Under the pieces are notes generated by a model. It saw only the letters and a list, made by a program, of their open reading frames with translations, did not search any database and was not told the DNA's origin. Positions 8,432 through 25,507 of a DNA stretch of 64,000 bases are shown in pieces. The stretch's first letter is position 1. Each line of letters opens with the position of its first letter. The position numbers and the translations under genes were made by a program. Source of the DNA: an uncultured Thermodesulfobacteriota bacterium (GTDB lineage: Bacteria; Desulfobacterota; GWC2-55-46; JADFVP01); contig CAYOVP010000005.1 of assembly GCA_964407495.1 (NCBI GenBank), positions 905 through 64,904 of the forward strand, read 5' to 3'.

Positions 8432-9082
8432 TCACGAGTCTGAGCGGATCTTCTCTACCTTTTTACGAAGGCTCTTCACGAGGTCTTCGTAGGACGAACG
8501 GCGGATTATCTTGCCGAACTGTGTACGGTAATTGCTCACAAGGCTTACGCCCTCTATCACTATGTCATAGGCCACCCACCTCTCGTCCTTCTTCATCATG
8601 CGGTAGAAGATGGGTATCTCCGTACCCTTGCTGGTAACGACCTTTGTCTTTACGAGCCCCCGGGTGCCCTTCCTGTTCTGCCTCTCATCGAGATACAATA
8701 CCTTGTCGTCCTTATCTGTCTGTTGCTCTATCTTGGATATGTAGGAGTTCTCCAGAAGGTCGCTGAAGAGGTCGACAAACTCTCTTCTCTGCTCTGGCGT
8801 AATCTTTCTCCAGTGTACGCCCAGGGAGCGGCGCGTCATCTCCTCAAAATCTATGGTATCCTCCACAACTGCACGTATACGCTCGCGCCGTTCCTTCTTG
8901 TGGGCCTTGCCCTGCAGGGCAGGGTCTCTCAGCACAGCCAGGGCGCTGTCCACGGTCTGGCGGATACGCTCGGTCATCTGGCCGGCCACTGCGGCATTGG
9001 TAGTAAAGAGGATAGCCAGTAGGGAAAAAGCCACGAGAACAAAGATAGTCCTGTTTTTCAAGATCGCACCACCTTTCTTCAA
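8432..9082 (-). CDS. hpnM: MlaC/Ttg2D-family periplasmic lipid-binding protein, HpnM-like
   Basis: Signal peptide plus Ttg2D/MlaC-like domain ('YDIVIEGVSLVSNYRTQF'). Lies adjacent to hpnN at the edge of the hopanoid locus. Confidence 0.7.
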   Translation of the reverse strand: MKKGGAILKNRTIFVLVAFSLLAILFTTNAAVAGQMTERIRQTVDSALAVLRDPALQGKAHKKERRERIRAVVEDTIDFEEMTRRSLGVHWRKITPEQRREFVDLFSDLLENSYISKIEQQTDKDDKVLYLDERQNRKGTRGLVKTKVVTSKGTEIPIFYRMMKKDERWVAYDIVIEGVSLVSNYRTQFGKIIRRSSYEDLVKSLRKKVEKIRSDS

Positions 9083-9555
9083 TATTCACCTATTTCAGTT
9101 CCAGTGAGACCGCCGCCTCAGGGGCCCTCGACAAGCGCCCCTTCCAAGGCCTCCTCGGTGCCGACCCGGTTTATCCCCAGAGTCCTTTTTAACACAAAAG
9201 GCCCTTATACACAAAAACTTAATTTCCTGTACAACCCCCGCCTCCAATCCCCTTGGCCTATGGTCTCAAGGGCTGGGGCCAAGGCACAATCTCTACCGGT
9301 GCGGGCCTTGCCTCATGTCCCTTTATATAATATACTACAAGACAAGGGTCGGCGCGGCAGGTCGTAAAGTGACTCCAGTCATGATTGAAAGTCTGATTGA
9401 TTCAGCCATATCTTCGGCCCATGGAGGGGCCGCCATTTTCAAAACTACAAGTCCTTGAAAATGTGAGGGAAAGAAAAACCGCGCTCTTTCTTTTACGCCC
9501 CAGAATAATTCAGGGACGAATCAAGGAGAGGTCCCTTGATAAGGATAGGTAGAAG

Positions 9556-10215
9556 GTGAGTAGGAGACAGGGGAAGCACATAGGGTATCTCTCCGGCGCC
9601 GTGGCCTTGGGCCTCCTCGTCCTCGTCCTCAACCTGGCAGTTCCGAGAGTCACACTCGGCGCCAGGCCGACAAAGGCCGAAGGGGCAGAGGCAGAGAAGG
9701 TCATAGAGACCCTGGACAATACCCTTCTCATGGTCATGAAAGACGCCAAGAGACTTGGCTACAGGGGGCGGTACGAGATCCTGAAGCCCGTGGTAGAGGA
9801 GACCTTCGACTTCGAGAGCATCACACGCTACTCTGTAGGCAGGCTCTGGAAGACCTTTGACGAGAAGGAGAAAGAAGAACTCGTCCAAAGGTTCACCACA
9901 CTCAGCATAGCCACCTACGCGGCCCGTTTCGACGGATATGGAGGAGAGAAGTTCCGGCTCGCCTCGAGCAAGCCCTTAAGACGAGGCCGTTACCTCGTAC
10001 GGACAGAACTCGTAAAGGCAGACGGCGAGATAATACACATGGACTACGTGATGAAGAAAAAGGGCGGCAAGTGGCGCGCCGTAAATGTAGTGGTAAACGG
10101 CGTGAGCGACCTCTCCCTAAAGCGCGCTCAGTACACGTACATACTCAGAAAAAAGAACTACGAGGGCCTCATCCGTAAACTCGACAAGAAGATAGCGGCC
10201 TACGAAGAGGATTAG
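9556..10215 (+). CDS. Second MlaC/Ttg2D-family protein (HpnM paralog)
   Basis: GTG start with upstream AAGGA. Signal peptide plus 'NVVVNGVSDLSLKRAQY', cognate to the MlaC motif. Divergent from the gene at 8432. Confidence 0.65.
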   Translation: MSRRQGKHIGYLSGAVALGLLVLVLNLAVPRVTLGARPTKAEGAEAEKVIETLDNTLLMVMKDAKRLGYRGRYEILKPVVEETFDFESITRYSVGRLWKTFDEKEKEELVQRFTTLSIATYAARFDGYGGEKFRLASSKPLRRGRYLVRTELVKADGEIIHMDYVMKKKGGKWRAVNVVVNGVSDLSLKRAQYTYILRKKNYEGLIRKLDKKIAAYEED

Positions 10216-10329
10216 CCCACCGGCAGGGGCCGCCATAGAGGTCACGGTGCCTGCCCCTCCCTACCGGACCACCACCCTACCCTATCCCCCAAAACCGCCA
10301 CTCTCTCATGCAGATATTCAGTCCTTACT

Positions 10330-13005
10330 TTACTTATCGGACCCTGGCAGGAGTAGCGGCAGTACAAAGAGCGTAGAGACAACTGTAAGGACTATGCCCA
10401 CGGTAAGGAGGTGTCCCATACTCGCCATGCCCCTGTGGTGAGAGAAGGCGAGGCCGCCGAAACTTATGACAGTGGTAAGGGCGCTGTAGAAGACCGCCCT
10501 CGAGGTGCTGGACCTCAGGAGAGCGCCCGGCGCCGTGGGCGTGGTGCGCGCCCGGTGCACCACGTGTATGCCGTTATCCACGCCAATACCGAGAAAGAGC
10601 GGCAGGGCGATGATGTTGGCAAAGTTGAATGGTATGTGCAGGATGACCGTTGCCGCGCCCGTAAGGAGCCCGGCGTACACGAGGGGCAGGAGTATGAGGG
10701 CCGTGTCCCTGGCGTCGCGCAGTATGACGAGGAGTATGATGATTATGAAGACAAGGGCATAGATAAAGGCCTGGCGAAAGGCATGCACAACCGTTCGGCC
10801 CGACTCCACTATGACCACCGGAAGGCCCGTTGCGTCCGGCTCTACGGTGCGCACACCCTCCACGAACTCGGCGAGGTCGGCAGGGTCAGAGATGTTCTTC
10901 TTTGGGAAGACCTTTATGAGCCTCGACCCGGTGCGGCCCACCCAGTGCCCGACAAGGTCTGGCGGCAGGTCGCTGAAGGTCACTGGCCCGGCCTCGAGGG
11001 ACTCTCGAAGGAGAGCGAGTCGTGCCGGCAGACCGGCAAGAAGGGCCTTCTCGAACTCCGAGACAAGGGCCTCTCCCTCGCGGGGCCCGGTTTTGTCCAC
11101 CTTTTCCATGAGCGCCTCTATTGCGCTGAGGGTGGCGCCTGCGGCCTCCCTCTCCCCGGGCCTTACTGACTCAGAGGATGCGTATCTCCTGAGCGCCCTC
11201 TCAAGGTCTTTTAGGGCCTCGATACGCGAGGCCCCCTCTTTCCCTGCCCCTGCCGGAGCCGTCTCTTGGCCCCATGGTTCGAGGCCAGGGCCCATGAGCA
11301 TGGATATCTCCTCAATTATATCGAGTTTCTCGTCCTGGTCCCTGGGCACGAAATCATATATGCTCACTGCCTTGTCAACGACTGGAAGGGCCTTGAGTTT
11401 CTTTACGCTCCGGGCAACGTCCTCGCCCTTGCCCTTTACCACCATTATGGTAAGCGGCGAGGAGCCCGGCTCCTTCATTAGTTCGTTGAAGGTGGCAACA
11501 GACTCCATGGAGGCGTCGCGAAGGTTCATGGGATTACCGTCAAAACGCACCCCGCCCAGAAGGGCCACGGAGCCGGCGCCTACGAGGGTAAGGAAAAGGA
11601 GTATGGGGAAGCGCCTGGCGCGGGCCCTGTCCATGAGGCCAGGCCCCGGCGGAGTGCCCGGGGGGGTCTTCGGGTCATGGCCACGCACCCTGAGGGGCCG
11701 GAGAGAGACGAGGGCAGGGAGAAAGGTAAGGCTTACGAAGAGACTGATGAAGATACCCGTGCCTGATATGAGGCCCAGTTCAGATACGCCGGAGTAGGCT
11801 GTCGGCATGAATGAATAAAAGCCCGCGGCAGTGGTGATGGTACAGAGGACAAGAGAGGCCCCAACGTCTCCTGCGGCCATTCGCATGGCCTCGGCGTGAG
11901 GGCGCCCCTCAAAGACGAGTTCACGGTAGCGCAGGCAGAGATGGATGGCAAAGTCTATTCCAAGGCCTATGTACAGGACGGCAAAGGCCATGGAGATCAT
12001 ATTCAGGTTGCCAACGGTTGCCGTGGCAAAGGCCGCTGTGCCTATGATGCCGCAAAGGAGCGTGACCATGGAGGCCACGAGCATGGTAAGGCTCCTGAGG
12101 GCCACGAAGAGTATGATACAGACAGCGAGAAAGGCCGCTATGCTCGCAAGCCCTGCGCCTTGGCTCACGCTCTTGAATTCCTCGTTGGCGAGGGCCACGG
12201 ACCCGGTAAGGCGCACACGCACGCCGCTGGACTCTGTAAGGGAGAGTTCCTGCACCAAGGCCCGTATCCTCTGCATGGCGGCCTCGCCCTGGAAGAGTTC
12301 GGAGAAGTTGAGCCTGGGCTGGACTATGATGAACCGCCTCCTGTCCGAGGGTTTGCTCTTTTTGCCGAGCATTATGTCCTGCCAGGCGAGGCGGTAAAAA
12401 CGCCCCTCTCTCGTAGCGCGCGCCGCTTCCCCAACACCCTCGAGGACAGGCCTCAACTCGAACTCCTCGCCCACGTCGCCCTCTTCCACGGCCTTCATCG
12501 CCTCTTTGAGCATGGAGAAGAAACCACTTAGGCTCTGGTCTGCCATGAGTTTGCCGAGAAAGGGCTGGACCTGGGCAAGGTGGTCTGAGAGGTCTTCGAG
12601 TTTCTCCACGCTAAGGTACAGGAGCCCGTTACGCCTGAAGAACTCGCTCCCACCAGGGCGGTACACGCTCTTGAAGAGCGTCTTCTCCTTGCCAAGGCGC
12701 ACCTCGAGCCTCTCTGCCGCACTCTCGGCAAGCCCTGGTGTGGCGCCGTCTATGACTATGGCTATCTCGCCAAAGTACTCTGGGAACTCCTTCTTGTACT
12801 CGAGGTAGGTCTTCCTCCAGGGGAGTTTCTCGGAGATCATCTTCGAGGCATCGGTGTTGATGCCTATGTGGTGAACCGTGTAGTTGAGAAGGAAGGCCGT
12901 GAGGATGAAGAAGGCGATGACCACTGGCCAGGCATGGGAAGAGACAAAGCCCACCCATGATGAGAGCGCCCTGCCTATGAGACCTGTACTTATGCTCTGT
13001 TTCAT
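10330..13005 (-). CDS. hpnN: RND/MMPL-superfamily hopanoid transporter HpnN-like
   Basis: 891 aa with two 6-TM bundles separated by large periplasmic loops, the MMPL/SSD architecture. Position next to hpnM is typical. Confidence 0.75.
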   Translation of the reverse strand: MKQSISTGLIGRALSSWVGFVSSHAWPVVIAFFILTAFLLNYTVHHIGINTDASKMISEKLPWRKTYLEYKKEFPEYFGEIAIVIDGATPGLAESAAERLEVRLGKEKTLFKSVYRPGGSEFFRRNGLLYLSVEKLEDLSDHLAQVQPFLGKLMADQSLSGFFSMLKEAMKAVEEGDVGEEFELRPVLEGVGEAARATREGRFYRLAWQDIMLGKKSKPSDRRRFIIVQPRLNFSELFQGEAAMQRIRALVQELSLTESSGVRVRLTGSVALANEEFKSVSQGAGLASIAAFLAVCIILFVALRSLTMLVASMVTLLCGIIGTAAFATATVGNLNMISMAFAVLYIGLGIDFAIHLCLRYRELVFEGRPHAEAMRMAAGDVGASLVLCTITTAAGFYSFMPTAYSGVSELGLISGTGIFISLFVSLTFLPALVSLRPLRVRGHDPKTPPGTPPGPGLMDRARARRFPILLFLTLVGAGSVALLGGVRFDGNPMNLRDASMESVATFNELMKEPGSSPLTIMVVKGKGEDVARSVKKLKALPVVDKAVSIYDFVPRDQDEKLDIIEEISMLMGPGLEPWGQETAPAGAGKEGASRIEALKDLERALRRYASSESVRPGEREAAGATLSAIEALMEKVDKTGPREGEALVSEFEKALLAGLPARLALLRESLEAGPVTFSDLPPDLVGHWVGRTGSRLIKVFPKKNISDPADLAEFVEGVRTVEPDATGLPVVIVESGRTVVHAFRQAFIYALVFIIIILLVILRDARDTALILLPLVYAGLLTGAATVILHIPFNFANIIALPLFLGIGVDNGIHVVHRARTTPTAPGALLRSSTSRAVFYSALTTVISFGGLAFSHHRGMASMGHLLTVGIVLTVVSTLFVLPLLLPGSDK

Positions 13006-13289
13006 GGATACCCTCAGATCTCCCCCTGGGGCCTTGAGGGCCCTCGGCCAGGCCCCTTCTGCGAACAGGCCTTTGGTTCACCTCAGGCCGGGCATCTACC
13101 CTCCTGAGTTGTCTTTTATGCGGCGCTGTGATATCTTTTGCCCGACGCGCACCCAGGTTTCCCCAGAGGGGCGAAGGCCGGCGCATGGGCCCCTGAGACC
13201 AACACCGCGATGGTCATGGTACAGCATGACATATTGCAACACCGTGACCGAAAATACAAGGCCTCTGCCGGGCCGGGCCCGGATTTTAC

Positions 13290-14699
13290 ATGAAAAAGAG
13301 AGAAAAAGACAGCCCTGGCGCCCAGGTATCCACGGCGGTCATCGTGGCCGCAGGGCTTGGTACGCGCATGGAGGGGTACGAAGAAGGGGCTGATCCAAAG
13401 CCACTCCTGCCCCTCGTGGGCGTGCCCATCATTGGCCGTGTCATGGCCGGCGCGGCAAGGGCAGGCATCAGCCGCCTTGTCGTTGTAATAGGCAACAAGG
13501 CAGAGGCCATGAGAGAGCGCCTCCCAACACTCACACCGCCAGGGGCTGAACTGATACTCGTAGAGAACACCCGATACAGAGAGCCCAACGGCCTGAGCCT
13601 CCTTGCGGGCCTTGGCGCAGCACATGGCCCCTTCGCGCTCCTCATGTCCGACCATATCTTCAGCCCGGAGCGCCTGGAACTCGCCATAAAGGCCTTTGGC
13701 AGGGACGGTACGCCGAGGCTCGTTGTAGAGAAGAAAGAGGACTTCACAGGAGACATCGAAGACGCCACCCTCGTAGGCGTAGACAACGAAGGCTTCATCC
13801 GTGCCATAGGAAAGGGCCTTACAGAGTATCACGCTATTGATACGGGCATGTTCGTCCTATGCCCAGACCTCGTGCGTGAGGCCGCAGAAAAGGCCGGCCC
13901 CTCGCCCTCCATCTCGGAGATAATGGGCGTACTCGCAGGAGAAAGAAAACTCAAGGCCCTCTTCCTTGATGCCGGCTACTGGCAGGACGTGGACACTCCC
14001 GCCGACATGCAAGAGGCCGAGAAGAAACTCTACGCATCTCTCGTAAAGCCTGCCGATGGTTTCATGGCCCGGCACGTCAACAGGAAGATAAGCCTCTTTA
14101 TAAGCACCCGTATCTGGCGCTTAGGCGTAACGCCCAACATGGTCACCACCTTTACCCTTGTCCTCGGCCTCCTGGCAGGCCTTGCCTTCTCGCGCGGCCC
14201 CGGGGCTGGCTGGGGGCTCCTTGGGGCCGCGCTCTTCCAGGCACACTCCATAATCGACGGCGTGGACGGAGAACTCGCCAGGCTCCTCCTCAAGGAGAGC
14301 AACCTTGGTTTCTGGTACGATATCGGTGCAGACAACATCACGCACATGGCCGTCTTCGCGGGCATTGCCATGGGGCAGAGGGCAGGGGGCGTGCCCGGGC
14401 CATGGGTGGCACTGGGCATTTTTTCAGCCCTCGGTGTCCTCGTCAGCGTAATAGCCCTCTCGCCCCTGCTGAAACCAGAGAGAAGAGGGCAAAAAGCGGC
14501 CACCAAGAAGAAGGGCCTCAAGAAGACAGTGGAGGCCCTTACGAGCCGGGACTTCTCCTATCTCCTCTTCCCCCTTGCCGTACTGCACTGGCTCGGCGGC
14601 TTTCTCTGGATAATAACCATAGGCACATGGATATACTCGGCACTGGTGATACTACTGAGGCTCAGGGCGCGGCCAGGGGGCGAGGGGGCCGCGGCCTGA
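13290..14699 (+). CDS. Bifunctional nucleotidyltransferase / CDP-alcohol phosphatidyltransferase (IPCT/DIPPS-like: inositol-1-phosphate cytidylyltransferase / di-myo-inositol-phosphate-phosphate synthase)
   Basis: N-terminal NTP_transferase 'VIVAAGLGTRM', C-terminal multi-TM domain with the CDP-OH_P_transf motif 'DGVDGELAR..G....G...D' and 'PNMVT'. Same two-domain order as archaeal/thermophilic IPCT-DIPPS fusions. Confidence 0.7.
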   Translation: MKKREKDSPGAQVSTAVIVAAGLGTRMEGYEEGADPKPLLPLVGVPIIGRVMAGAARAGISRLVVVIGNKAEAMRERLPTLTPPGAELILVENTRYREPNGLSLLAGLGAAHGPFALLMSDHIFSPERLELAIKAFGRDGTPRLVVEKKEDFTGDIEDATLVGVDNEGFIRAIGKGLTEYHAIDTGMFVLCPDLVREAAEKAGPSPSISEIMGVLAGERKLKALFLDAGYWQDVDTPADMQEAEKKLYASLVKPADGFMARHVNRKISLFISTRIWRLGVTPNMVTTFTLVLGLLAGLAFSRGPGAGWGLLGAALFQAHSIIDGVDGELARLLLKESNLGFWYDIGADNITHMAVFAGIAMGQRAGGVPGPWVALGIFSALGVLVSVIALSPLLKPERRGQKAATKKKGLKKTVEALTSRDFSYLLFPLAVLHWLGGFLWIITIGTWIYSALVILLRLRARPGGEGAAA

Positions 14700-15682
14700 A
14701 GGCGGTCCTTGTTGGGGCCGGTCTCCTGCTTGCGGCCTGGCTCATCTGGAGACTGGGCCCGGCAGAGGTCTGGAAGACCCTCGCAGGGGGGTGGTGGCCG
14801 GGGTTTGCCGGTGTAGTGGGGGCCTATCTCCTCCAGCAGGGCCTGGGGACCTTTGCTCTCTGGCTCCTTGGCACACGGAGAAGCGGGCCTGGATGGGCCA
14901 AGACAGGGGTCATGGGCCTTGCGCGCATCCGGTACATAGGCGAGGTCCTGAACTATGCCATGCCAACGGGAGGAATAGGAGGCGAGCCCTACAAACTCCT
15001 GGCCCTTTCCAGGAAAGAAGGGGTCAACTCGTCTTTCATGGCCCTTGCGGCGGCAAAGTTCCTCCACGTTGCGGCAGTAGGGCCCTTTGCCTCTGCTGTC
15101 TTTGCCGGAGCGGCCATAGAGGGCATGGGCGGGCCCAAGTGGCACCATACCTTCACAGTCATGGCCCTGGTCATGGCAGCCATGACCGTCTTCCTCTGGC
15201 TCGTCGTCCTCTGGAGCCGGACAGGCCGCGAACTCCTTGGAGGTTACTACCGCGTAAGGCACCGGGTGCCGAGAAAACTCCGCGGCCTCAGGCGCTTTCT
15301 CCACATCGATGTTGCAGCCTCAAAGGAGATAAAGCGCGCTCCGGCACGGGCCATTGTGGCATATGCCTGTTACATTGGCATGTGGGTAGCCGCATCCACC
15401 GAGTGGATAGCCATCTCTCGTGTCATAGGGGGGGGAGGCACAGGGCTCGGCCTCATCGGCGCCGGGCTCTTCGAGTGCGCCACGATAATAGTAGCCGCCG
15501 CTCTGCCCGTACCAGCAGGCATGGGCACCCAGGAGACAGGGAAGGCGGCTGTAGCGGTCCTACTCGGCCTCCCGCCCCAGGCGGGCCTTGCCATGAGCCT
15601 CGTCAGGAGGGGACGGGAGATACTCATGGTGGTAACGGGCATAGCCCTTGCCCTCTCCACCAGGAAAAAACAGGCCCCCTAA
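14627..15682 (+). CDS. hpnL: UPF0104/MprF-TM-like membrane protein, HpnL-like
   Basis: Multi-TM protein with a 'PTGGIGGEPYK' motif like the lysyl-PG synthase TM (flippase) region. First in-frame ATG is at 14627 (73-nt overlap with the upstream gene). The ORF track begins at 14402. Confidence 0.55.
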   Translation: MDILGTGDTTEAQGAARGRGGRGLKAVLVGAGLLLAAWLIWRLGPAEVWKTLAGGWWPGFAGVVGAYLLQQGLGTFALWLLGTRRSGPGWAKTGVMGLARIRYIGEVLNYAMPTGGIGGEPYKLLALSRKEGVNSSFMALAAAKFLHVAAVGPFASAVFAGAAIEGMGGPKWHHTFTVMALVMAAMTVFLWLVVLWSRTGRELLGGYYRVRHRVPRKLRGLRRFLHIDVAASKEIKRAPARAIVAYACYIGMWVAASTEWIAISRVIGGGGTGLGLIGAGLFECATIIVAAALPVPAGMGTQETGKAAVAVLLGLPPQAGLAMSLVRRGREILMVVTGIALALSTRKKQAP

Positions 15683-17110: not shown

Positions 17111-17332
17111 ACCTCTGCCGGCACCGCTCTCCGGCAGAGGCTCCTGGCACTGATCTTTCCTTGTTCCTGTTTTCTAATGAGTTGGTTGTTGCGGGCTTGC
17201 CCCGGCCCTGCCTCGCTGACCGAACCTGCCGCTAATAGGGGTGTTCCCTGACCCGCTTTCTTTCTTGAGGATGACGATACTGTGCCCTGCGCGAAAGCCT
17301 CCGCAGGGGAACGTCAGGTCTGCGCTAAAAGC

Positions 17333-17375
17333 GGTTTTCTTTGTCTTACTTTCTTTTTTCCAAAAGAAAGTAAGG
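17333..17375 (+). repeat. Intergenic palindromic repeat, copy 1 (family consensus ggttttctttg-yc-yyactttctttttyccaaaagaaagtrrg)
   Basis: 'ggttttctttgtcttactttcttttttccaaaagaaagtaagg' contains the inverted repeat actttctttt/aaaagaaagt. Near-identical copy at 58203-58245. Confidence 0.8.
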
Positions 17376-17549
17376 TGTTTTTTCTGTCATTTTTTCCCTC
17401 TTCTCTTCTCTCTCCTGCCAGAGAGGGTCTTTCTTCCGTCATTACCTTTCATCCGGCAGGTTTGCAGGGCCGCACCCTCTGTGTTAAACTTCAGGGGTAA
17501 CCTCGGAACACAGTACTGGCCCAGGGAGGGCCTTGGCAGAGATCATCAT

Positions 17550-18596
17550 ATGAGAGAGACCAAGAGAGCAAAGACGAGGCCTGGCCCCATATTCATCTTG
17601 AGGGGGCTCAAGAGGCTCTATGACTCCAAGGCCCTATACGCCCAACTCGCCGTAACAGACGACTGTAACCTCTCGTGTTCATACTGTAACGAATTCACTC
17701 CCGGGGCAAGTCCTCCCGCCCTTTCAGACCTCAAGGCCCGTGTCGACCGTCTCTCGGCACTCGGTGTCATGGTCTTCGATCTCCTCGGCGGAGAGCCCCT
17801 TCTGCACCCCGATATCCTCGAAGTCATCGGCTACATCAAGGCGCCGGGACGCAGAGCAACCATTGTAACCCTCATTACCAATGGTTTTCTCCTGAGCGAA
17901 GACATGGTTAAGGGGCTCAACGACTCTGGCCTCGACATGATGCAGATAAGCGTCGACTCCGCGCATCCCACGGCGCAGTCCGAAAAGTCTCTGAAGTCGC
18001 TCCTGCCGCGCATGAAGATGCTCGCAAGAACGGCCCGGTTCAAGGTAAAGGTCCAGTCTGTTCTAACAAAAGAGACTGCGCGCGAATACGGTGAGTTCAG
18101 GAGGCTCCTGAAGGGGCTTCCCTTTGACTTTGGTTTCTCTCTGCTCCACAGGCCTGGCGGCGGCGTGGCGATAAAGGGAGAAGAGTTCGTCCGACTCCTG
18201 CGCGATGAGAATCTCTTTGCCGGCATGAACCTCTACCGCAGGCACGCCGAGGAGGCCCTGCTGGGAGATTTCTCCAGGCCCTGGAAGTGTCTTGGGGGGA
18301 GCAAATTTCTCTATGTGAACACCCGGGGCGAGGTCCAGTACTGCAGTCAGAACAGGGAGTTCAGGCGGCCCCTCGAAGACTTCGGAAGTAATGACGTCAG
18401 GGCCAACAGGAGACACAAGTCCTGCGAGGCAGGCTGTGTGCTCGGTTGCGCCAGGCTCATCTCCCATGCCCTCGGCGAGCCGGTGCGGACCATGCAGACG
18501 AGTATCGCGCTTCTAACCGGCATAAGGCGGGCCGGGGCAGAGGCAGTACGAGACCAGGGACCACCTCACAGCGCAAGAGGGCCGCGGCCCAGTTAG
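17550..18596 (+). CDS. Radical SAM protein with C-terminal SPASM/twitch-like Cys cluster
   Basis: 'CNLSCSYC' radical SAM motif and C-terminal 'C..G......G.V..C ... CEAGCVLGC'. Start placed at an internal ATG. The ORF track N-terminus (from 17241) runs through the repeat and is not credible. Confidence 0.65.
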   Translation: MRETKRAKTRPGPIFILRGLKRLYDSKALYAQLAVTDDCNLSCSYCNEFTPGASPPALSDLKARVDRLSALGVMVFDLLGGEPLLHPDILEVIGYIKAPGRRATIVTLITNGFLLSEDMVKGLNDSGLDMMQISVDSAHPTAQSEKSLKSLLPRMKMLARTARFKVKVQSVLTKETAREYGEFRRLLKGLPFDFGFSLLHRPGGGVAIKGEEFVRLLRDENLFAGMNLYRRHAEEALLGDFSRPWKCLGGSKFLYVNTRGEVQYCSQNREFRRPLEDFGSNDVRANRRHKSCEAGCVLGCARLISHALGEPVRTMQTSIALLTGIRRAGAEAVRDQGPPHSARGPRPS

Positions 18597-18607: not shown

Positions 18608-19597
18608 ATGACCACCCTTGTTACAGGCGCAACGGGTTTTGTGGGATCTGCAGTGGTGCGGGCCCTTCTCAATAGGGGCCGGGCCGTACGGGTACTTGTG
18701 CGCCCTGAGAGCAACAGGCGCAACATCGTTGGCCTCGACGTAGAGGTCGTTACCGGCGACCTTACCAAGAGGGCCTCGCTCGTCCGCGCCATGAGGGGAT
18801 GCGTGGCCTTGTACCACGTTGCCGCAGACTACCGCCTCTGGGTGCCAAGGCCCGAGGAGATGTACGAGGCCAACGAGGCCGGCACGAGGCGGATCATGGA
18901 GGCCGCGCTCGAGGCAGGCATCGAGCAGATAGTATACACAAGTAGCGTAGCGACACTCGGGCTCCGCGCCGACGGCAGGCCTGCCGACGAAGACACGCCA
19001 TCTAGCCTAAAAGACATGATCGGCCACTACAAGAGGAGCAAATTCCTTGCAGAGCAAGAGGTCAAGAAACTCATAAGAGAAGAAGGCCTCCGGGCAGTCA
19101 TCGTCAACCCCTCTACGCCCGTTGGCCCTCGCGATGTGAAGCCCACACCCACGGGACGGCTCATAGTCAATGCCCTTGCAGGCAAGATGCCTGCCTACGT
19201 AGACACGGGCCTGAATATCGTGCACGTGGACGACGTTGCCGAGGGGCATGTCCTCGCCATGGAGCGGGGAAGAATTGGCCAACGGTACATACTCGGGGGA
19301 GAGAACCTCACTCTCTCGGAGATACTCGAACGCCTTGCCACGATAGGAGGGAGAAAACCCCCGCGCATCCGCCTGCCCCACGGCCTCGTAATGCCCCTTG
19401 CCCATGTATCAGAGGCCTGGGCAAGGCTCACAGGCGCCAAGAACCCCATGCTTACGAAAGACGGGGTAAAGATGGCCAGAAAACACATGTTCTTCACGAG
19501 CAGAAAGGCCATGGAAGAACTGGACTACCGCCCAAGACCCGCCATAGAGGCGCTCCGCGATGCCGCGAGATGGTTCAGAGAGAATAACTATGCCTGA
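18608..19597 (+). CDS. hpnA: NAD-dependent epimerase/dehydratase, HpnA-like
   Basis: Rossmann 'LVTGATGFVGSAV' at the N-terminus and SDR-extended-family length. Sits inside the hpn locus. Confidence 0.75.
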   Translation: MTTLVTGATGFVGSAVVRALLNRGRAVRVLVRPESNRRNIVGLDVEVVTGDLTKRASLVRAMRGCVALYHVAADYRLWVPRPEEMYEANEAGTRRIMEAALEAGIEQIVYTSSVATLGLRADGRPADEDTPSSLKDMIGHYKRSKFLAEQEVKKLIREEGLRAVIVNPSTPVGPRDVKPTPTGRLIVNALAGKMPAYVDTGLNIVHVDDVAEGHVLAMERGRIGQRYILGGENLTLSEILERLATIGGRKPPRIRLPHGLVMPLAHVSEAWARLTGAKNPMLTKDGVKMARKHMFFTSRKAMEELDYRPRPAIEALRDAARWFRENNYA

Positions 19598-19680: not shown

Positions 19681-19722
19681 CCCCTTTCTTTTAGAAAAAA
19701 GAAAGGGGAGCAAAGAAAAACC
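19681..19722 (-). repeat. Intergenic palindromic repeat, copy 2 (reverse orientation)
   Basis: 'cccctttcttttagaaaaaagaaaggggagcaaagaaaaacc' carries the same arm/tail structure. Upstream of ispH. Confidence 0.7.
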
Positions 19723-19795
19723 AGTTTTTGCCTATTAATCCAGGAACGAAAAACACAGGGCAAAACCCGCGTCTCCATAGAGAGGACAACCTGGC

Positions 19796-20710
19796 ATGAA
19801 ACTTCTTCTTGCAGAACCAAGGGGCTTCTGCGCAGGCGTAGAACGCGCTGTACTTACTGTGGAGAGGGCTCTCGAGAAGTACGGGGCTCCCATATACGTA
19901 CGCCATGAGATAGTGCACAACCGCCACGTGGTGGACAGTCTAAAGAACAAGGGAGTAATCTTTGTAGACGAACTCGACGAGGTCCCGGACGGCTCGGTGG
20001 TCATATTCAGCGCCCACGGCGTGTCAAGGAAAGTCAAGGCAGAGGGTCAGAGACGCGACCTCATCGTGATAGACGCCACCTGTCCTCTTGTGACAAAGGT
20101 GCACAGGGAGGCGCGGAGAAACGCCAGTGAGGGCCGCGAGCAGATACTCATCGGCCACGCAGGCCACCCCGAGGTGGTGGGGACGATGGGGCAGGTGGAT
20201 GGCCCCATGCACCTCGTCTCCTCGCCAGAGGACGTGGAGGCACTGGAGATAAAAAACCCGGACAACGTATCATACGTGACACAGACCACGCTCAGCATGG
20301 ACGACATGGCCGACATAGTGGCGGCGCTAAAGAAACGCTTCAGGAACATCCGGGGCCCCATGCGAGAGAACATATGCTATGCGACTCAGAACCGCCAGAA
20401 CGCCGTCAAGGCAGTGATAAAAAAGGTAGACCTACTTATAGTCGTAGGGGCCAGGAACAGTTCGAATTCCAACCGCCTCCGTGAACTGGGCGCAAGGTAC
20501 GGCGTACCATCCTACCTCGTGAGTACAGCAACTGACATAAGAGAGGAATGGCTCAATGGGGCCAGGAGGGTGGCCATTACAGCAGGGGCCTCGGCGCCCG
20601 AACTCCTCGTAAAGGAAGTCATCGAGTACCTGAAGGCCAGGTCTGGCGGCCTTACAATCGAGGACATAAAGGTAACGGACGAGAACGTGAAGTTCAGCCT
20701 CCCCATATAG
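19796..20710 (+). CDS. ispH: 4-hydroxy-3-methylbut-2-enyl diphosphate reductase
   Basis: '[14 protein letters not shown]', '[10 protein letters not shown]' and conserved Cys of IspH/LytB. An ispH copy is a frequent member of hpn clusters. Confidence 0.85.
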
Positions 20711-20741
20711 CCCGATACGGCAGAAGGGATAGAGGTAAGGC

Positions 20742-21806
20742 ATGGGTGTACCGCTCATACAACAGGTCCGCATAGGGGCCTATATCATGACGAGGAGCCT
20801 CAGGAGGGAGAAGCGCTTCCCCCTCGTCCTCATGCTTGAACCCCTCTTTCAATGCAACCTCGCCTGCGCAGGTTGCGGAAAGATAGACTACCCGCCCGAG
20901 ATCCTCAAGAAGAGACTCTCTGTGGAGGAATGTGTAGATGCGGCCCTTGAGTGCGGGGCGCCGGTAGTATCCATACCAGGCGGAGAGCCCCTCATACACC
21001 CGGAGATAGGCAGGATAGTACGGGGCCTTACGGGGCTGAAGAAGTTCGTATACCTCTGTACAAACGCCCTTCTTCTGAAGCGCAAGATGGACCTCTTCGA
21101 ACCAAGCCCCTACCTCACCTTCAGCATACACCTCGACGGCCTCGAGGAACGCCACGACAGCCTCGTGTCCTGCGAAGGGGTCTTCGAGAGCGCCGTGGAG
21201 GCCATAAGACTTGCCAAGAAACGGGGCTTTCGCGTTACCACCAACACCACCATTTACGGGAACGAATCGCCTGAAGAGGCAGTACGTCTCTTCGAGTTCA
21301 TCTCCGGCCTCGGCGTAGAGGGCATGACCTTGTCACCAGCCTTTCACTACGGCAACGCAAGAGAAAAGAAAGATTTTCTCGGACGGGAGGAGGCCGTGCT
21401 CATCATGAGGAGACTTATCAGGGAGGGCGCGATCCGGGGTTGGAAGTTCAATCACAGCACTCTCTTCCTCGACTTCCTCGCAGGCAACCAGGACTACCGT
21501 TGCTCCCCCTGGGGCAATCCCACGCGCAATATCTTCGGCTGGCAGATGCCCTGTTATCTCCTCAACGAGGGATACGCATCTTCTTACAGGGAACTCATGG
21601 AGAAGACGGACTGGGAGGCCTATGGCTATGACAGGAACGCCAAGTGCGCAGACTGCATGGTACACTGCGGGTATGAGCCAACGGCTGTCATGGACACACT
21701 TCGCCACCCCCTGAAGGCCCTCGTGGCCAAGTTGGGAGGCGTGGACCGAAAGGGGGCAGAGAGGCCACGCCCCGTAAAGACCATTCCGCCCCAGGAGACA
21801 ACCTAA
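20742..21806 (+). CDS. hpnH: Adenosylhopane synthase (radical SAM) HpnH
   Basis: 'EPLFQCNLACAGCGKI' radical SAM motif and C-terminal 'CADCMVHCGYE' (DUF3463-like), as in HpnH. Confidence 0.85.
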   Translation: MGVPLIQQVRIGAYIMTRSLRREKRFPLVLMLEPLFQCNLACAGCGKIDYPPEILKKRLSVEECVDAALECGAPVVSIPGGEPLIHPEIGRIVRGLTGLKKFVYLCTNALLLKRKMDLFEPSPYLTFSIHLDGLEERHDSLVSCEGVFESAVEAIRLAKKRGFRVTTNTTIYGNESPEEAVRLFEFISGLGVEGMTLSPAFHYGNAREKKDFLGREEAVLIMRRLIREGAIRGWKFNHSTLFLDFLAGNQDYRCSPWGNPTRNIFGWQMPCYLLNEGYASSYRELMEKTDWEAYGYDRNAKCADCMVHCGYEPTAVMDTLRHPLKALVAKLGGVDRKGAERPRPVKTIPPQETT

Positions 21807-21846
21807 CCCCACCTACCCTTAGCACCCCCAGACAACCTGGTCGCCG

Positions 21847-22389
21847 CTAAAACCCTATGGCAAGAGTAAGGAGGATCTCGTCCTCTCCAGGGTTCTTGTC
21901 GTGCACATTGGCATTGGATAGGTGGCCAAGGCGGAGCCCGACCCTCATGCGTTCCAAGACCTGGTAGTCGAAGTTGAGGGCAAGGCGGAATGTAAAGACA
22001 CCGCCGAGGTTTCTGCTCGACCCCTTGTGATACCCGCCCATGGCCGCAACAGGCGTAAGAACGAAGTCTCCATACAAGAGGTCTGCGTAAAAGCCGGCAT
22101 ACCCGTAGAACGCGCCGTCTGTGTTTGCAAGGATACCTATGAGGGGACCCACGAAGTAGTACTTCTTTCCAAAACGCAGTTCCCCGTTGAGTTCGCCCGC
22201 GCCGTCTCCATCGTCCACATTGTGAAAAGAAAAGGCACCTGCCCCAATATCTGCGTAATTGTACGAATCCCCTGCAACACTGAAGTTGCCAGATGAATAG
22301 AAGGGCGTCTGCCTGCCACCGGCAAGGGCCGTAGAAGCGGCAAAGAGGAGGAAGAAAAAGAGAATGCCTCTTGTGAGAAAAATGCGCAC
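21847..22389 (-). CDS. Outer-membrane beta-barrel protein, PagL-like acyloxyacyl hydrolase family
   Basis: Signal peptide, alternating-hydrophobic beta-strands, 'HLSNA' His/Ser region and a C-terminal aromatic residue. Confidence 0.5.
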   Translation of the reverse strand: MRIFLTRGILFFFLLFAASTALAGGRQTPFYSSGNFSVAGDSYNYADIGAGAFSFHNVDDGDGAGELNGELRFGKKYYFVGPLIGILANTDGAFYGYAGFYADLLYGDFVLTPVAAMGGYHKGSSRNLGGVFTFRLALNFDYQVLERMRVGLRLGHLSNANVHDKNPGEDEILLTLAIGF

Positions 22390-22652
22390 CTATTTCTCCT
22401 TTGTAGTAAAGACAAGGAAGGCAGAAAAAAACCGCTTAGTAAAAAAAGGAAAATACTTAAGGGAATCGCGTTACAGCGGCCCTGATCCGTAAAAGAGGCC
22501 GTTTCTCAGGGCCCAAGGCAAGGTGCAGCAAAAAAATCGCTTCTGGAAAGACGGTGAGACTATAACACTTGATGAGCGAGATGTAAAGCAGTGGACTGAG
22601 GACTCGAAAGGATTTGAGGCAAGAAAGCCTGGCCAGCAGACCCCTCTTACCC

Positions 22653-23438
22653 TCACTGGCCCTGCGCTCCACTGCCAGGGACGAGTGCAGAAAAAAAACC
22701 CTCGTCCACGAGGGCGCGCCAGGCGCGGCCCAGGGAAGATGTTGCCGAGTCAAAGGACTTCTTGAGATGCACCATCTCCTTCAGAAGGGAGGGCCGCTTC
22801 AGACATCTGCCAAGAAGTCTGCCTGTCATCAGACCACCCTCATCGTCCAGGCAGTCGTAAAGGTCTTCAGATATGCCTTGCTCTGCCGTGTCGCAGACAG
22901 CGCGCATCACAAGAAAGGGCACGCCCTCTCTTGCCGCCAGAGCGGCCACGGCCCCGCTCTCCATGTCAACGGCAAGGGCCCCGCTCTCCCGGAAGAGCCT
23001 GGCCTTGGCCCCTGCAGTGAGTACGGCCCCCGTGGTGCTCACCAGAGGGCCACGCGTAAAAACCACCCCCGCCCTCTTCAGCGCACCTGCCGCAAGGTCG
23101 AGTAAGTCCTTCCGGGCGGCATGGAAACCGCCCCCCCCTTCAAGTATGACCCCTCCGGCGAGAACCACGTCCCCTGAACCGAGTCCTGGTGAGAGGGCAC
23201 CGGAGACGCCAAGACTGAGGAGCAACTCCGCCCCCTCATCAAGGGCCAAGGCCGTTGCCACGGTGGCCCGCTCCATGCCCACGCCAGAGAGCACTGCTAT
23301 GAGTTCACTTACACCAAGGCTCGTCCTCGCCACGGTTGGCCCGCCCTTGCTGGTGCCGCCGCCTGAGGCCTCCCACCTTACGCGGCCAAGCACTGCACGT
23401 GCCTCGGCCCTGAGCGCCAATACGAGACCAACCCTCAC
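22653..23438 (-). CDS. hpnG: PNP/MTA-nucleosidase-family hopanoid-associated phosphorylase HpnG-like
   Basis: PNP_UDP fold motifs ('GVGMERA', 'AVDMESGA'). Directly downstream of shc with a 4-nt overlap. Confidence 0.7.
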   Translation of the reverse strand: MRVGLVLALRAEARAVLGRVRWEASGGGTSKGGPTVARTSLGVSELIAVLSGVGMERATVATALALDEGAELLLSLGVSGALSPGLGSGDVVLAGGVILEGGGGFHAARKDLLDLAAGALKRAGVVFTRGPLVSTTGAVLTAGAKARLFRESGALAVDMESGAVAALAAREGVPFLVMRAVCDTAEQGISEDLYDCLDDEGGLMTGRLLGRCLKRPSLLKEMVHLKKSFDSATSSLGRAWRALVDEGFFSALVPGSGAQGQ

Positions 23439-25507
23439 AGCCCGAGTCTCTTGATGACCGGAATGGTCCAGTCTGGTGGGCGCTCGAGAGATACCTCGTC
23501 CTGGCGGGTCTTTCCTGCATCCTTGAGCCGCCTGTACATGCCAAGGGCCCAGAGAGGAAAGTACAGCCTGTAGCCATGGTACTTGAGATAGAAGACGCGG
23601 GGAAAGCCAGTGCCTGTATAGAATCTCTCATCCCAGGTTCCATCTGGCTTCTGGGTCTGAAGGAGATACTCGATACCCCGCCTCACGGCCTCATCGTCAT
23701 GACCCGCAACGGCCATAAGCCCCATGACGGCCCATGCGGTCTGGGATGGAGTACTCGGGCCCATGCCTGCAAGGCGCGCGTCGTCATAACTCCGGCAGGT
23801 CTCGCCCCACCCGCCGTCGTCGTTCTGGCGCGAGCGAAGCCACGCCGCGGCCTTCTGTATGTAGGGCTGTCCCATCTCCTCACCTGCCCGCTTAAGGCCA
23901 GCCAAGACGGACCACGTGCCGTATATGTAATTTACGCCCCATCTTCCGAACCATGCGCCGCACTCTTCCTGCTCGGCCCGGAGAAACTCGATGGCACGGG
24001 CTACAGGCGGAAAATCGCGCCTGTAGCCCAGCATGGCGAGGACCTCTACACACCGGCCCGTAACGTCAGAGGTGCTGGGGTCGAGGAGCGCACCGTGGTC
24101 GGCAAAGGGGATATCATTCAGGTAGGTGTAGTTGTTGTCGATATCAAATGCGCCCCAGCCGCCGTCCGAACTCTGCATGCCTATTATCCAGTTTACGGCC
24201 CTTGCTATGGGTTCCCTGTATTCTTTCTTCTCCATGGCGCCTGCACGTAGAAGAGACATCACCACCATGGCCGTGTCGTCAGTGTCGGGATAGAAGTCAT
24301 TCTCGTACTGAAAGGCCCAGCCACCAGGCTCCAGATCAGGGGCATTCACAGACCAGTCGCCCCTTACGAATATCTGGTGCTCGAGGAGCCACTTCACGGC
24401 CTTCCCGGCCCTCTCCTCCAAGCCCTCTCCGCCTGCCTCGGCCATGGCCGAGAGAGATAGACAGGTGTCCCAGACCGGAGAGAAACAGGGCTGGCAGAAC
24501 CCCTCGTCGCCGTGCTCCACGAGAAGGTCGTCGAGGGCCTTCATGCCATGGACCATATCAGGGTGGTCCTTGCTGTACCCCAGTACGCTCAGGGCGATGA
24601 GGCAGTTCACCATTGGAGGGAATATGGCCCCTATGCCGCCCTCGCCTCGCATGCGCTCCAAGATGAAACGCTCGGCAAGTGCGGTGGCCCGGTCCTGCCA
24701 GAGTCTCGATATGATGGGATCGAGTCTCTTTATGATACGGTCCACGAGTATGAAGAAGTTCTTGCGCGGCCTGCCGGTGACAAACTTGTCTATGTGGCCG
24801 ATCTTGTCCGGAGGTGATACGAAGAGTTCATAGAGACACTCCTCGGGTCTGAGCGTACAGACCGTCCGGCGGGAGCAGAAGACGAGGAGCGTGACTATCA
24901 CGGTGCGCGACCAGTATGAGACCTTGTCGATATGAAAGGGAAACCAGCGCGGCAGGAGCATTATCTGCACGGGTATGGCGGGTACGGTGCGCCAGGGTAT
25001 CTGACCGTAAAGGGCAAGGAGTATGCGCGTAAAGACATTGACTCGTGCGGCCCCGCCCAGGCTGAGTATGAGTTGCCTTGCGCGGACCATGTGGGGTTCG
25101 TCCGGCGAGTCGCCAGAGAGTTTCAAGGCAAAGTAGGCCTTCACAGTGGCGCTTATGTCCGAGAACCCGCCCTCATAGAGCGGCCAGCCTCCATCGGCAA
25201 GTTGCCCCCGCCGTATGTAGCGCGTGAGGCGTTCCTTCAGGGCCGGATCCATCTCGCGTTCGAGGAAACGCTGGAGTATTATGTACTCGGCGGGGATGGT
25301 GACGTCGGCCTCGAGGTCGAATACCCAGTTTCCAGCCTCCGCCTGCAACCCGCCAAGGGCCCTGAAGGCCCTCTCTGCAGACTCTTCGAGCCCAGGGTAG
25401 GCCCCCAGCCGGTCCTCGACGCGCCGAGCCGCCGGGCCGGCTACCCTGAGCCTCCCTCTCGACCTCTTCATCATGCCAAAGACCTTCTTCTCCTTCATCT
25501 CGCTCAT
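23435..25507 (-). CDS. shc: Squalene-hopene cyclase
   Basis: Catalytic 'DTDDTAMV' (DxDD) motif and multiple QW motifs ('GGWG'). Start placed at an internal ATG with a plausible RBS. The ORF track extends to 25684. Confidence 0.9.
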   Translation of the reverse strand: MSEMKEKKVFGMMKRSRGRLRVAGPAARRVEDRLGAYPGLEESAERAFRALGGLQAEAGNWVFDLEADVTIPAEYIILQRFLEREMDPALKERLTRYIRRGQLADGGWPLYEGGFSDISATVKAYFALKLSGDSPDEPHMVRARQLILSLGGAARVNVFTRILLALYGQIPWRTVPAIPVQIMLLPRWFPFHIDKVSYWSRTVIVTLLVFCSRRTVCTLRPEECLYELFVSPPDKIGHIDKFVTGRPRKNFFILVDRIIKRLDPIISRLWQDRATALAERFILERMRGEGGIGAIFPPMVNCLIALSVLGYSKDHPDMVHGMKALDDLLVEHGDEGFCQPCFSPVWDTCLSLSAMAEAGGEGLEERAGKAVKWLLEHQIFVRGDWSVNAPDLEPGGWAFQYENDFYPDTDDTAMVVMSLLRAGAMEKKEYREPIARAVNWIIGMQSSDGGWGAFDIDNNYTYLNDIPFADHGALLDPSTSDVTGRCVEVLAMLGYRRDFPPVARAIEFLRAEQEECGAWFGRWGVNYIYGTWSVLAGLKRAGEEMGQPYIQKAAAWLRSRQNDDGGWGETCRSYDDARLAGMGPSTPSQTAWAVMGLMAVAGHDDEAVRRGIEYLLQTQKPDGTWDERFYTGTGFPRVFYLKYHGYRLYFPLWALGMYRRLKDAGKTRQDEVSLERPPDWTIPVIKRLGL

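Follow-up and report, generated by a model that had tools for sequence, protein, structure and literature searches.

Among bacterial membrane lipids hopanoids are a major group, and they serve as key biomarkers in geology. The described systems closest to the locus analysed here include the modules which produce composite hopanoids (HpnI/K/J, with or without HpnL, or HpnB/L). In Acetobacter the canonical gene order, hpnL–hpnA–hpnB–hpnC–D–E–shc, places hpnL next to hpnA. The functions of hpnA, hpnB and hpnL, which occur only in genomes with hpnH, are unknown, as are the enzymes for many side-chain decorations (PMC12583986), and in a 2026 review of radical S-adenosylmethionine (SAM) enzymes which modify lipids the only hopanoid entries are HpnH, HpnJ, HpnP and HpnR (PMC13459092). 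A 2025–26 preprint on hopanoid microsynteny puts forward hpnL, hpnM, hpnS and hpnT as candidates, and in its Table S8 'CDP-alcohol phosphatidyltransferase' is among the commonest families within 20 open reading frames (ORFs) of shc, with 1409 occurrences which are not discussed, while an NTP-transferase fusion is listed only twice near shc (10.1101/2025.07.29.667474). For inositol lipids, a putative and unconfirmed alternative cluster, proceeding through cytidine diphosphate (CDP)-inositol in a Kennedy-like manner, was described in Bacteroides and Prevotella by Heaver et al. 2022 (PMC9246714), and the Archaeoglobus fulgidus IPCT/DIPPS (PDB 4MND) is a characterised enzyme of di-myo-inositol phosphate (DIP) synthesis. 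The DNA considered here, referred to as the window, is a stretch of 64,000 nucleotides from an uncultured Thermodesulfobacteriota bacterium (contig CAYOVP010000005.1), and contains a hopanoid locus in which genes for a predicted CDP-inositol pathway are found together with an additional radical SAM enzyme, which we refer to as rSAMx.

We found no description of this system in the literature searched on inositol-hopanoids, CDP-inositol and radical SAM enzymes, HpnL function or aminopentanetetrol head groups, and neither the rSAMx family nor its link with HpnL is described in the review, the preprint or the account of the Bacteroides and Prevotella cluster cited above (PMC13459092; 10.1101/2025.07.29.667474; PMC9246714).

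Inositol genes, rSAMx and their conserved neighbours

Genes were assigned by NCBIfam/TIGRFAM and Pfam profile searches against curated cut-offs (Table 1). HpnM, HpnN, HpnA, HpnH, IspH and the squalene–hopene cyclase (SHC), all of which had been named in a preliminary description of this DNA, pass theirs, and SHC has a DTDD motif (of the DxDD type) and six QW-like motifs. The view of the locus as non-canonical was also borne out, but two inositol genes had been overlooked, one for an IPCT/DIPPS-like fusion protein and the other for a myo-inositol-1-phosphate synthase (MIPS). Residues 13–361 of the fusion align with the A. fulgidus IPCT/DIPPS (E 9e-39), and the protein retains the GxGTR nucleotidyltransferase motif as well as the CDP-alcohol phosphotransferase core DGxxAR..G...D...D from residue 323 (DGVDGELAR-x8-G-x3-D-x3-D). 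It should be noted that we have not filed the fusion as a DIP synthase because its NF041135 score lies below the equivalog cut-off. MIPS passes the Pfam cut-off and falls below that of the mycothiol-type equivalog TIGR03450; its position is kept in related metagenome-assembled genomes (MAGs), and its counterparts in zetaproteobacterial clusters are 69–72% identical. Together, the locus is predicted to encode a route from glucose-6-phosphate through inositol-1-phosphate and CDP-inositol to the transfer of phospho-inositol to an alcohol; the enzymes up to CDP-inositol are identified by homology, and we infer all later steps. The window also includes an inositol monophosphatase-family gene (51727–52527, + strand; Pfam Inositol_P, 240 bits), whose product may dephosphorylate an inositol-phosphate intermediate or may be an ordinary SuhB.

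rSAMx is a protein of 348 amino acids (the ATG at 17550 suits the N-termini of its homologues better than the database call at 17481) which belongs to the radical SAM superfamily, with a PF04055 score of 54.3 bits (cut-off 29.5) and a CNLSCSYC motif of the CxxxCxxC type formed by C39, C43 and C46. Five further cysteines are found towards the C-terminus (C247, C265, C292, C296 and C300), and none of the eight varies among 29 aligned homologues. In the AlphaFold model (mean predicted local distance difference test score, pLDDT, of 74) a partial TIM barrel is followed by a β-hairpin (residues 253–263), which C247 and C265 flank, and a helix (290–308) which holds C292, C296 and C300. A SPASM/twitch-like cysteine cluster had been proposed for this protein in the preliminary description; the five invariant cysteines and the hairpin–helix arrangement give the modelled C-terminus a twitch-like layout, although it has no match to Pfam SPASM (PF13186) at E ≤ 0.01. 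rSAMx passes no NCBIfam model, in keeping with the earlier statement that it is not a standard hpn gene, and when PDB sequences were searched with its family profile, only the generic radical SAM core was matched. More than 1000 homologues were found, the best 120 of which share 53–100% identity, and in a library of 1.84 billion proteins the family forms two clusters at 50% identity. On these sequence comparisons, we regard rSAMx as a distinct, unnamed and tightly conserved family.

A hydrophilic substrate is suggested for rSAMx, which has no predicted transmembrane segment and in which many polar or charged positions are invariant. Its best structural matches in the PDB are BlsE, SkfB, AbmM, SuiB, viperin with CTP, MoaA, DesII and BtrN, all of which, except for the ribosomally synthesised and post-translationally modified peptide (RiPP) maturases SkfB and SuiB, act on nucleotides, nucleotide-sugars, sugars or cyclitols; we take these matches as a lead rather than as proof because the TM-scores are only 0.4–0.6. 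An end-to-end alignment of rSAMx with HpnH gives 24% identity and shows a matching cysteine layout (C38, C42 and C45 plus C254, C271, C302, C305 and C309 in HpnH), and the C-terminal domains of the two proteins may have a distant common ancestry. We considered rSAMx as a paralogue of HpnH and did not adopt this, as HpnH is absent from its top 25 family matches. The closest sister families, which have the same motifs, match the rSAMx family profile at E 1e-43 to 1e-68; among them are proteins in which the radical SAM part is fused to a GT2 glycosyltransferase, a VTT/DedA membrane domain or a methyltransferase (P0298, P0320, P0413, P0312 and P0303), with one GT2–radical SAM fusion (locus L093, 1853–9785) lying beside a 990-amino-acid B12-binding radical SAM enzyme (B12-rSAM) and a SPASM radical SAM enzyme. 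A polar-group transferase, a flippase-like membrane module, this radical SAM clade and a B12-rSAM are repeatedly found together in varied forms, and the sister-family fusions look like an uncharacterised family of head-group-tailoring systems.

The locus has a B12-rSAM of its own. This had been described as HpnJ-like, a label which the profile scores do not support, as the TIGR04072 (113 bits), BchE (96.7 bits) and HpnJ models (TIGR03471; 91.5 bits, cut-off 577.6) are comparably near and all scores are far below the cut-offs. The HpnR model gives 61 bits (cut-off 650) with DUF4070 not matched, HpnP is not among the 25 best NCBIfam matches, and the best PDB match is AprD4. The zetaproteobacterial counterpart which adjoins rSAMx is 42–44% identical to the window's B12-rSAM and shows a weak match to DUF4070 (20.7 bits, under the cut-off of 22). 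We do not call the B12-rSAM hopanoid-specific because its orthologues in other taxa are found in non-hopanoid loci. A 62%-identical orthologue (locus L084, 1–2484 and 10001–13939) lies near genes for a CDP-alcohol (CDP-OH) transferase, an LPG_synthase_TM protein, GpsA, an acyl-CoA ligase, SCP2 and a GDSL lipase, and a general membrane-lipid role is suggested for this subfamily. The name HpnL, previously given to the neighbouring flippase-like gene, has likewise been withdrawn, since the protein falls far short of the HpnL model (TIGR03476) though it passes PF03706; the start used here is that of the database gene call, and the gene overlaps the 3' end of the fusion gene.

To place these genes in a wider context, we fetched 80 rSAMx loci from species-representative genomes, used tblastn, de novo clustering and hidden Markov models to compare them with the window, and counted neighbours within 10 kb of rSAMx in what were then 81 loci in all. 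Five Thermodesulfobacteriota MAG contigs, two of which break off inside the cluster, show the whole arrangement of the locus again at 43–90% protein identity, and it is therefore not a chance juxtaposition. The window's nearest relatives are uncultured MAGs of this phylum, in which rSAMx is accompanied by the CDP-OH transferase in 4/5 loci, the LPG_synthase_TM protein in 4/5 and the B12-rSAM in 5/5. In the Zetaproteobacteria (13 loci) the order is SHC–HpnG–HpnN–HpnA–HpnL–rSAMx, with HpnL present in all 13 and HpnA in 11, and the B12-rSAM, CDP-alcohol phosphotransferase, MIPS and a separate IPCT are then found nearby. In L016, L027 and L083, the three of these loci which were tested, the protein adjoining rSAMx is a true HpnL, with scores of 331–341 bits (cut-off 196). 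Hopanoid genes adjoin rSAMx in two lineages and 18/81 loci, and the presence of the same gene set in a differing order in the two phyla suggests selection for clustering.

Elsewhere the cassette is found in a reduced form. Seven of the eight Binatia-type loci have rSAMx, a CDP-OH transferase and an HpnL-like protein (117–137 bits), with the following gene mostly starting 4 nt past the rSAMx stop codon or overlapping it, and this triad adjoins LptF/LptG-like permeases or an Omp85-family barrel. The Entotheonella-type loci have a CDP-OH transferase in 6/8 cases, divergent to rSAMx where read gene by gene, and also hold an MMPL transporter and an outer-membrane efflux protein (OEP). These neighbours in the two groups (e.g., L034 6839–9888, L037 8562–9860 and L002 7169–8623) hint that the product of the cassette is bound for the outer membrane. 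In every lineage tested, the best models for the CDP-OH neighbours are DIPPS, archaetidylinositol-phosphate synthase and phosphatidylinositol phosphate (PIP) synthase (that of locus L010 additionally gave a weak pssA match). We note that the cassette is not demonstrably tied to hopanoids or CDP-inositol everywhere, because the Binatia-type and Entotheonella loci lack adjacent hopanoid genes and MIPS, nor is the rSAMx family demonstrably hopanoid-specific, because Binatia-type, Entotheonella and Elusimicrobia genomes also carry it with no hopanoid genes beside it.

A proposed inositol-phosphate head group and its alternatives

The explanation we favour, which we judge to have an even chance of being right, is that a hopanoid side-chain and export cluster has absorbed a cassette which makes and transfers an inositol-phosphate head group. 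MIPS would make inositol-1-phosphate, the N-terminal half of the fusion, as an IPCT-type cytidylyltransferase, would convert this to CDP-inositol, and the C-terminal half, seemingly an intact CDP-alcohol phosphotransferase of the inositol-phosphate-handling branch, would attach phospho-inositol (or a phospho-cyclitol) to a lipid alcohol of the membrane. Passage of the product across the inner membrane would fall to the HpnL-like flippase-like protein, and HpnN and HpnM would take it outward. rSAMx, as the putative signature enzyme of the cassette, would tailor either CDP-inositol or the inositol phosphate once transferred, using a 5'-deoxyadenosyl radical and an auxiliary twitch-type Fe–S cluster, and the reaction could be an oxidation, epimerisation, dehydration or rearrangement; we propose head-group tailoring because of the analogy with its structural relatives and its hydrophilic character. 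The B12-rSAM would modify the head group further, for example by C-methylation or a rearrangement, and the PagL-like protein encoded in the locus would be a separate lipid A deacylase. The preliminary description had instead looked to side-chain or ring chemistry beyond adenosylhopane. The findings do not point that way, and polar head-group chemistry is favoured because the conserved partners of rSAMx across phyla are a CDP-alcohol phosphotransferase of the inositol-phosphate type and HpnL or an HpnL-like protein, and because the full predicted CDP-inositol route is found in the locus.

As the acceptor, we favour a C35 hopanoid polyol of the bacteriohopanetetrol (BHT) type because of the operon coupling to true HpnL, HpnA and HpnH and because hpnA, hpnB and hpnL occur only in hpnH-positive genomes. 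In its most specific form, the proposal is of a new composite hopanoid, a BHT-type polyol linked through a phosphodiester to inositol or to a radical-SAM-tailored cyclitol, built by a CDP-inositol-dependent transferase, flipped by an HpnL-type protein and exported by HpnN/HpnM, with rSAMx and the B12-rSAM tailoring the head group; stated in such detail, we consider it doubtful. We know of no hopanoid with a phosphodiester such as that in the predicted product.

Several observations weigh against the favoured explanation. No inositol-containing hopanoid has been reported in the literature searched, the window's flippase-like protein is only a remote relative of HpnL, the fold similarity on which the role of rSAMx draws is modest (both in the TM-scores and in the mean pLDDT given above), and B12-rSAM orthologues of ~53–62% identity are found outside hopanoid loci. 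No hopanoid gene lies within 10 kb of rSAMx in the Binatia-type and Entotheonella loci, and in the representatives of these inspected, the nucleotidyltransferase-like domain of the CDP-OH protein has lost its catalytic motif and MIPS is not adjacent. Furthermore, 47 Elusimicrobia or unclassified MAG loci are without any of these rSAMx partners; de novo clustering of the neighbours in these loci found no functionally coherent partner (they include a DUF255-like protein, HEAT-repeat proteins, hydrolases and cytochrome oxidase genes), and no partner was found in one further locus, from Thermoanaerobaculia. Finally, MIPS is 70% identical between the two phyla while SHC is ~50% identical, and if the inositol genes were passed horizontally among vent bacteria, the two associations could look more independent than they are.

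We consider a glycerolipid almost as likely an acceptor as a hopanoid, because the cassette lies away from hopanoid genes elsewhere, its transferases are PIP-synthase-like and no inositol-hopanoid has been reported. The product would then be an inositol phospholipid with glycerolipid or ceramide as its backbone (of the phosphatidylinositol or PIP type, and possibly radical-tailored), with the placement in the hopanoid locus reflecting co-regulation or co-export to the outer membrane, an explanation which is possible though somewhat questionable. The CDP-OH neighbours resemble PIP and archaetidylinositol-phosphate synthases, the Binatia-type and Entotheonella loci stand beside LptF/G, Omp85, OEP or MMPL genes with no hopanoid genes nearby, the B12-rSAM has an orthologue among glycerolipid genes (GpsA, acyl-CoA ligase, CDP-OH and LPG_TM), and a comparable cluster has been proposed for Bacteroidetes inositol lipids (PMC9246714). 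However, zetaproteobacterial rSAMx is translationally coupled to a true HpnL within an SHC–HpnG–HpnN–HpnA operon, the window's rSAMx ends 12 nt upstream of an hpnA–ispH–hpnH series, and hpnL and hpnA are confined to hpnH-positive genomes (PMC12583986). We think it unlikely that the hopanoid skeleton or its C5 side chain is the direct target of rSAMx and the B12-rSAM (by methylation, HpnJ-like rearrangement, functionalisation or a second adenosylation) with the inositol genes as unrelated neighbours. The end-to-end alignment of rSAMx with HpnH and their common cysteine layout would fit such a role, as would the proximity of rSAMx to hpnA (adjacent in the window and, beside hpnL, one gene away in the Zetaproteobacteria); SHC or hopanoid clusters have also been reported for rSAMx-bearing Elusimicrobia, Entotheonella and Desulfobacterota, HpnCDE are reported for Zetaproteobacteria with SHC lying within the fetched loci, and several bacteriohopanepolyol tailoring steps are still without enzymes (PMC12583986). 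Against this stand the lack of a predicted transmembrane segment and the invariant polar and charged residues of rSAMx, the position of HpnH outside its top 25 family matches, and the failure of the B12-rSAM to pass the HpnJ and HpnR models or to include HpnP in its best 25, while the steadiest partners of rSAMx are the CDP-OH transferase and the HpnL-like protein, even where no hopanoid gene is nearby.

The remaining alternatives leave the membrane lipid aside. That MIPS and the fusion make DIP as a soluble thermo- or osmoprotectant, next to unrelated radical SAM and flippase-like genes, seems highly unlikely. The architecture of the fusion is identical to that of the characterised DIP enzyme (4MND), the window has the inositol monophosphatase-family gene noted above, and there are weak hints of a suitable habitat in the names of the nearest relatives' MAGs, which by themselves suggest deep-sea dive or vent sampling, and in the inclusion of Thermodesulfatator in the B12-rSAM family. 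But the NF041135 score is far below the cut-off (216 vs 580 bits), the cassette is conserved in Zetaproteobacteria, Binatia and Entotheonella, for which to our knowledge DIP accumulation has not been reported, and a soluble product leaves the cross-phyla coupling to a flippase-like protein and rSAMx unexplained. A housekeeping role for rSAMx as a MoaA, PqqE or peptide maturase here by coincidence, which the preliminary description had itself raised as an objection, is scarcely conceivable and we regard it as effectively refuted. MoaA and other SPASM/twitch enzymes are the top profile matches of rSAMx, but these cover the radical SAM core only, and because the scores lie far below both cut-offs (71.2 vs 284 bits for MoaA and 43.4 vs 381 bits for PqqE) rSAMx is not taken to be such an enzyme; the CDP-OH/HpnL synteny is also conserved across four lineages, and no molybdopterin, pyrroloquinoline quinone or precursor-peptide genes are found nearby.

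Gene map and further features of the window

Table 1. Features of the hopanoid locus and flanking genes, with positions in the window, strand and supporting evidence (scores in bits).
Feature	Position	Strand	Evidence
nifS, iscR	6435–8096	-	Profile searches
MlaC-family periplasmic lipid-binding protein (HpnM-like paralogue)	8432–9082	-	Pfam MlaC 173; HpnM model 100 vs cut-off 160
HpnM	9556–10215	+	TIGR03481 222.4, cut-off 160.1
HpnN, RND/MMPL hopanoid transporter	10330–13005	-	TIGR03480 1015, cut-off 752
IPCT/DIPPS-like fusion (putative inositol-1-phosphate cytidylyltransferase + CDP-alcohol phosphotransferase)	13290–14699	+	NF041135 216 vs 580; Pfam NTP_transf_3 + CDP-OH_P_transf
LPG_synthase_TM flippase-like membrane protein, distant HpnL relative	14627–15682	+	PF03706 69; HpnL model 56.7 vs 195.65
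B12-binding radical SAM enzyme, unnamed subfamily, not HpnJ	15797–17110	+	PF02310 + PF04055
439-nt intergenic region between two transcription units	17111–17549		Hairpin at ~17113–17145; REP-like palindrome with T-run at 17342–17377
Extra radical SAM enzyme (rSAMx), unnamed family, twitch-like C-terminal Cys domain	17550–18596	+	PF04055; no NCBIfam model passed
HpnA (short-chain dehydrogenase/reductase, SDR; 'hopanoid-associated sugar epimerase')	18608–19597	+	TIGR03466 518.7, cut-off 367.65
IspH	19796–20710	+	NF002188 475, cut-off 420
HpnH, adenosyl-hopene transferase	20742–21806	+	TIGR03470 509, cut-off 225; DUF3463 present
PagL-family outer-membrane lipid A 3-O-deacylase-like protein	21847–22389	-	PF09411 43.4, cut-off 23
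HpnG-like nucleoside phosphorylase	22653–23438	-	Best match TIGR03468, 146 vs cut-off 187; PNP_UDP_1 domain
Squalene–hopene cyclase (SHC)	23435–25507	-	TIGR01507 787, cut-off 431; 690-amino-acid start from gene call
Myo-inositol-1-phosphate synthase (MIPS/INO1)	25868–27040	+	PF01658 123, cut-off 27; TIGR03450 446 vs 638

Two further genes fall short of hopanoid gene models. HpnG is indeed the best match of the nucleoside phosphorylase, whose score falls below the cut-off, and the first gene of the locus is MlaC-like and does not reach the HpnM model. As had been stated, the squalene genes hpnC, hpnD and hpnE are missing: the called genes of the 64 kb, together with its ORFs of 200 amino acids or more (150 amino acids for 1–6.5 kb), include neither these nor hpnI, hpnJ, hpnK, hpnO, hpnP or hpnR. 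An Rfam scan of 8–29 kb at E ≤ 1 gave only chance eukaryotic or archaeal matches, with no riboswitch or known RNA in the 439-nt gap upstream of rSAMx. We also observed a 22-nt palindrome, CTTTCTTTTTTCCAAAAGAAAG, which is present in the window in seven copies with no more than two mismatches (17349–17370, 19684–19705, 49516–49537, 50036–50057, 53227–53248, 55880–55901 and 58219–58240), where none would be expected by chance. The two copies within the locus are intergenic and each is followed by a T-run, and the palindrome looks like a repetitive extragenic palindromic (REP)-like element or a shared terminator.

The PagL-like β-barrel between hpnH and hpnG was confirmed by its PF09411 score, signal peptide and C-terminal Phe. 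H156 and S158 are invariant (H-x-S), and an Asp or Glu is found at position 170, +14 from the His; this spacing matches that of H126, S128 and E140 in PagL. The AlphaFold2 model is an eight-stranded barrel (pLDDT 76) whose best natural match in the PDB is Pseudomonas aeruginosa PagL (2ERV; E 2.8e-4), while a PDB sequence search with the protein gave no match. The two proteins have in common PF09411, the eight-stranded outer-membrane barrel, a signal peptide and the H-x-S motif with an acid at +14, but share only ~13–14% identity in the structural alignment, the acid is Asp in the window protein's clade, and no lineage other than this one of the Thermodesulfobacteriota shows the position between hpnH and hpnG. 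Homologues of at least 61% identity occur in this lineage alone and lie between hpnH and hpnG wherever the context can be read, more distant ones (38–41% identity) are found among ArnT-like, GT2 and Wzy genes in typical contexts of lipid A or lipopolysaccharide modification, and the gene is absent from the zetaproteobacterial clusters. The protein is probably a lineage-specific, catalytically competent lipid A 3-O-deacylase inserted in the locus. Hopanoids are known to interact with lipid A in outer membranes, and a functional link between them and the protein is plausible, although nothing outside this one lineage supports it.

Beyond the locus, a canonical mlaE–mlaF–mlaD–mlaA–mlaC operon (27183–31034, - strand) directly follows MIPS, and for this reason the MlaC and MlaA near the locus are probably part of a housekeeping Mla system; we considered those at 27183–28952 as hopanoid shuttles of the HpnM/HpnS type and rejected this. 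The genes at 31889–39768 (TPR, GT2, HEAT-repeat and PilZ) resemble a c-di-GMP-controlled exopolysaccharide synthase cluster. A GNAT/HATPase_c_2 protein (39397–40875, + strand) adjoins an LPG_synthase_C-domain protein (40951–42015, - strand), and this pair may be aminoacyl-lipid-related and unconnected to the PF03706 gene of the hopanoid locus. A quorum-sensing set of the acyl-homoserine-lactone type is found at 43978–45955, with an Autoind_synth gene (43978–44640, + strand), a LuxR-type Autoind_bind/GerE gene (44588–45331, - strand) and a second Autoind_bind gene (~45368–45955, - strand); as far as we know, such quorum sensing is unexpected for the phylum Thermodesulfobacteriota.

Comparison with known systems

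The locus connects an unnamed radical SAM family with HpnL, and a predicted complete CDP-inositol pathway with hopanoid genes, in two phyla. It raises the possibility of a phospho-cyclitol hopanoid which could be targeted by mass in lipid surveys, offers candidate substrates for the orphan rSAMx and B12-rSAM families, and would point to HpnL-type proteins as head-group flippases and to a use of the IPCT/DIPPS architecture in bacteria beyond compatible-solute synthesis. A composite hopanoid, if that is the product, would provide the first functional handle on HpnL and HpnA; if the acceptor is an ordinary glycerolipid, the locus would still represent a widespread radical-tailored inositol-lipid cassette in uncultured bacteria.

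With BlsE, DesII, BtrN, viperin, MoaA, AbmM and HpnH, rSAMx shares a partial TIM-barrel core and CxxxCxxC motif, and, in its model, with twitch and SPASM enzymes a Cys-flanked C-terminal β-hairpin followed by a Cys-bearing helix. It differs from the latter in passing no family model, in leaving Pfam SPASM unmatched and in having five conserved auxiliary cysteines, whereas auxiliary motifs have three in MoaA (CX2CX13C) and four in BtrN. The fusion and the A. fulgidus IPCT/DIPPS have the same two-domain architecture (~350 residues), an intact CDP-alcohol phosphotransferase motif and a linkage to MIPS, but the window protein is ~30% identical, scores below the equivalog cut-off and is found in a lipid locus with flippase-like and radical SAM enzymes. 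The putative Bacteroides and Prevotella cluster also has MIPS, an NTP transferase, a CDP-alcohol phosphatidyltransferase and an LPG-synthase-like gene (PMC9246714); in contrast, the window has no HAD hydrolase, two extra radical SAM enzymes, and a hopanoid rather than a sphingolipid context.

In common with the composite-hopanoid modules (the GT2 enzyme HpnI with HpnK and HpnJ, or HpnA/HpnB/HpnL), the window has a polar-group transferase, a PF03706 protein, the SDR HpnA and a B12-type radical SAM enzyme in a hopanoid locus. Unlike these modules, its transferase is a CDP-alcohol phosphotransferase, predicted to be fed by MIPS and IPCT, with no glycosyltransferase, it lacks HpnI, HpnK and HpnB, its B12-rSAM fails the HpnJ model, and there is an extra radical SAM enzyme of the twitch type. 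We regard the locus as a variant of these known kinds, the head-group modules of composite hopanoids and the inositol-lipid cassettes of bacteria, defined by an orphan radical SAM family.

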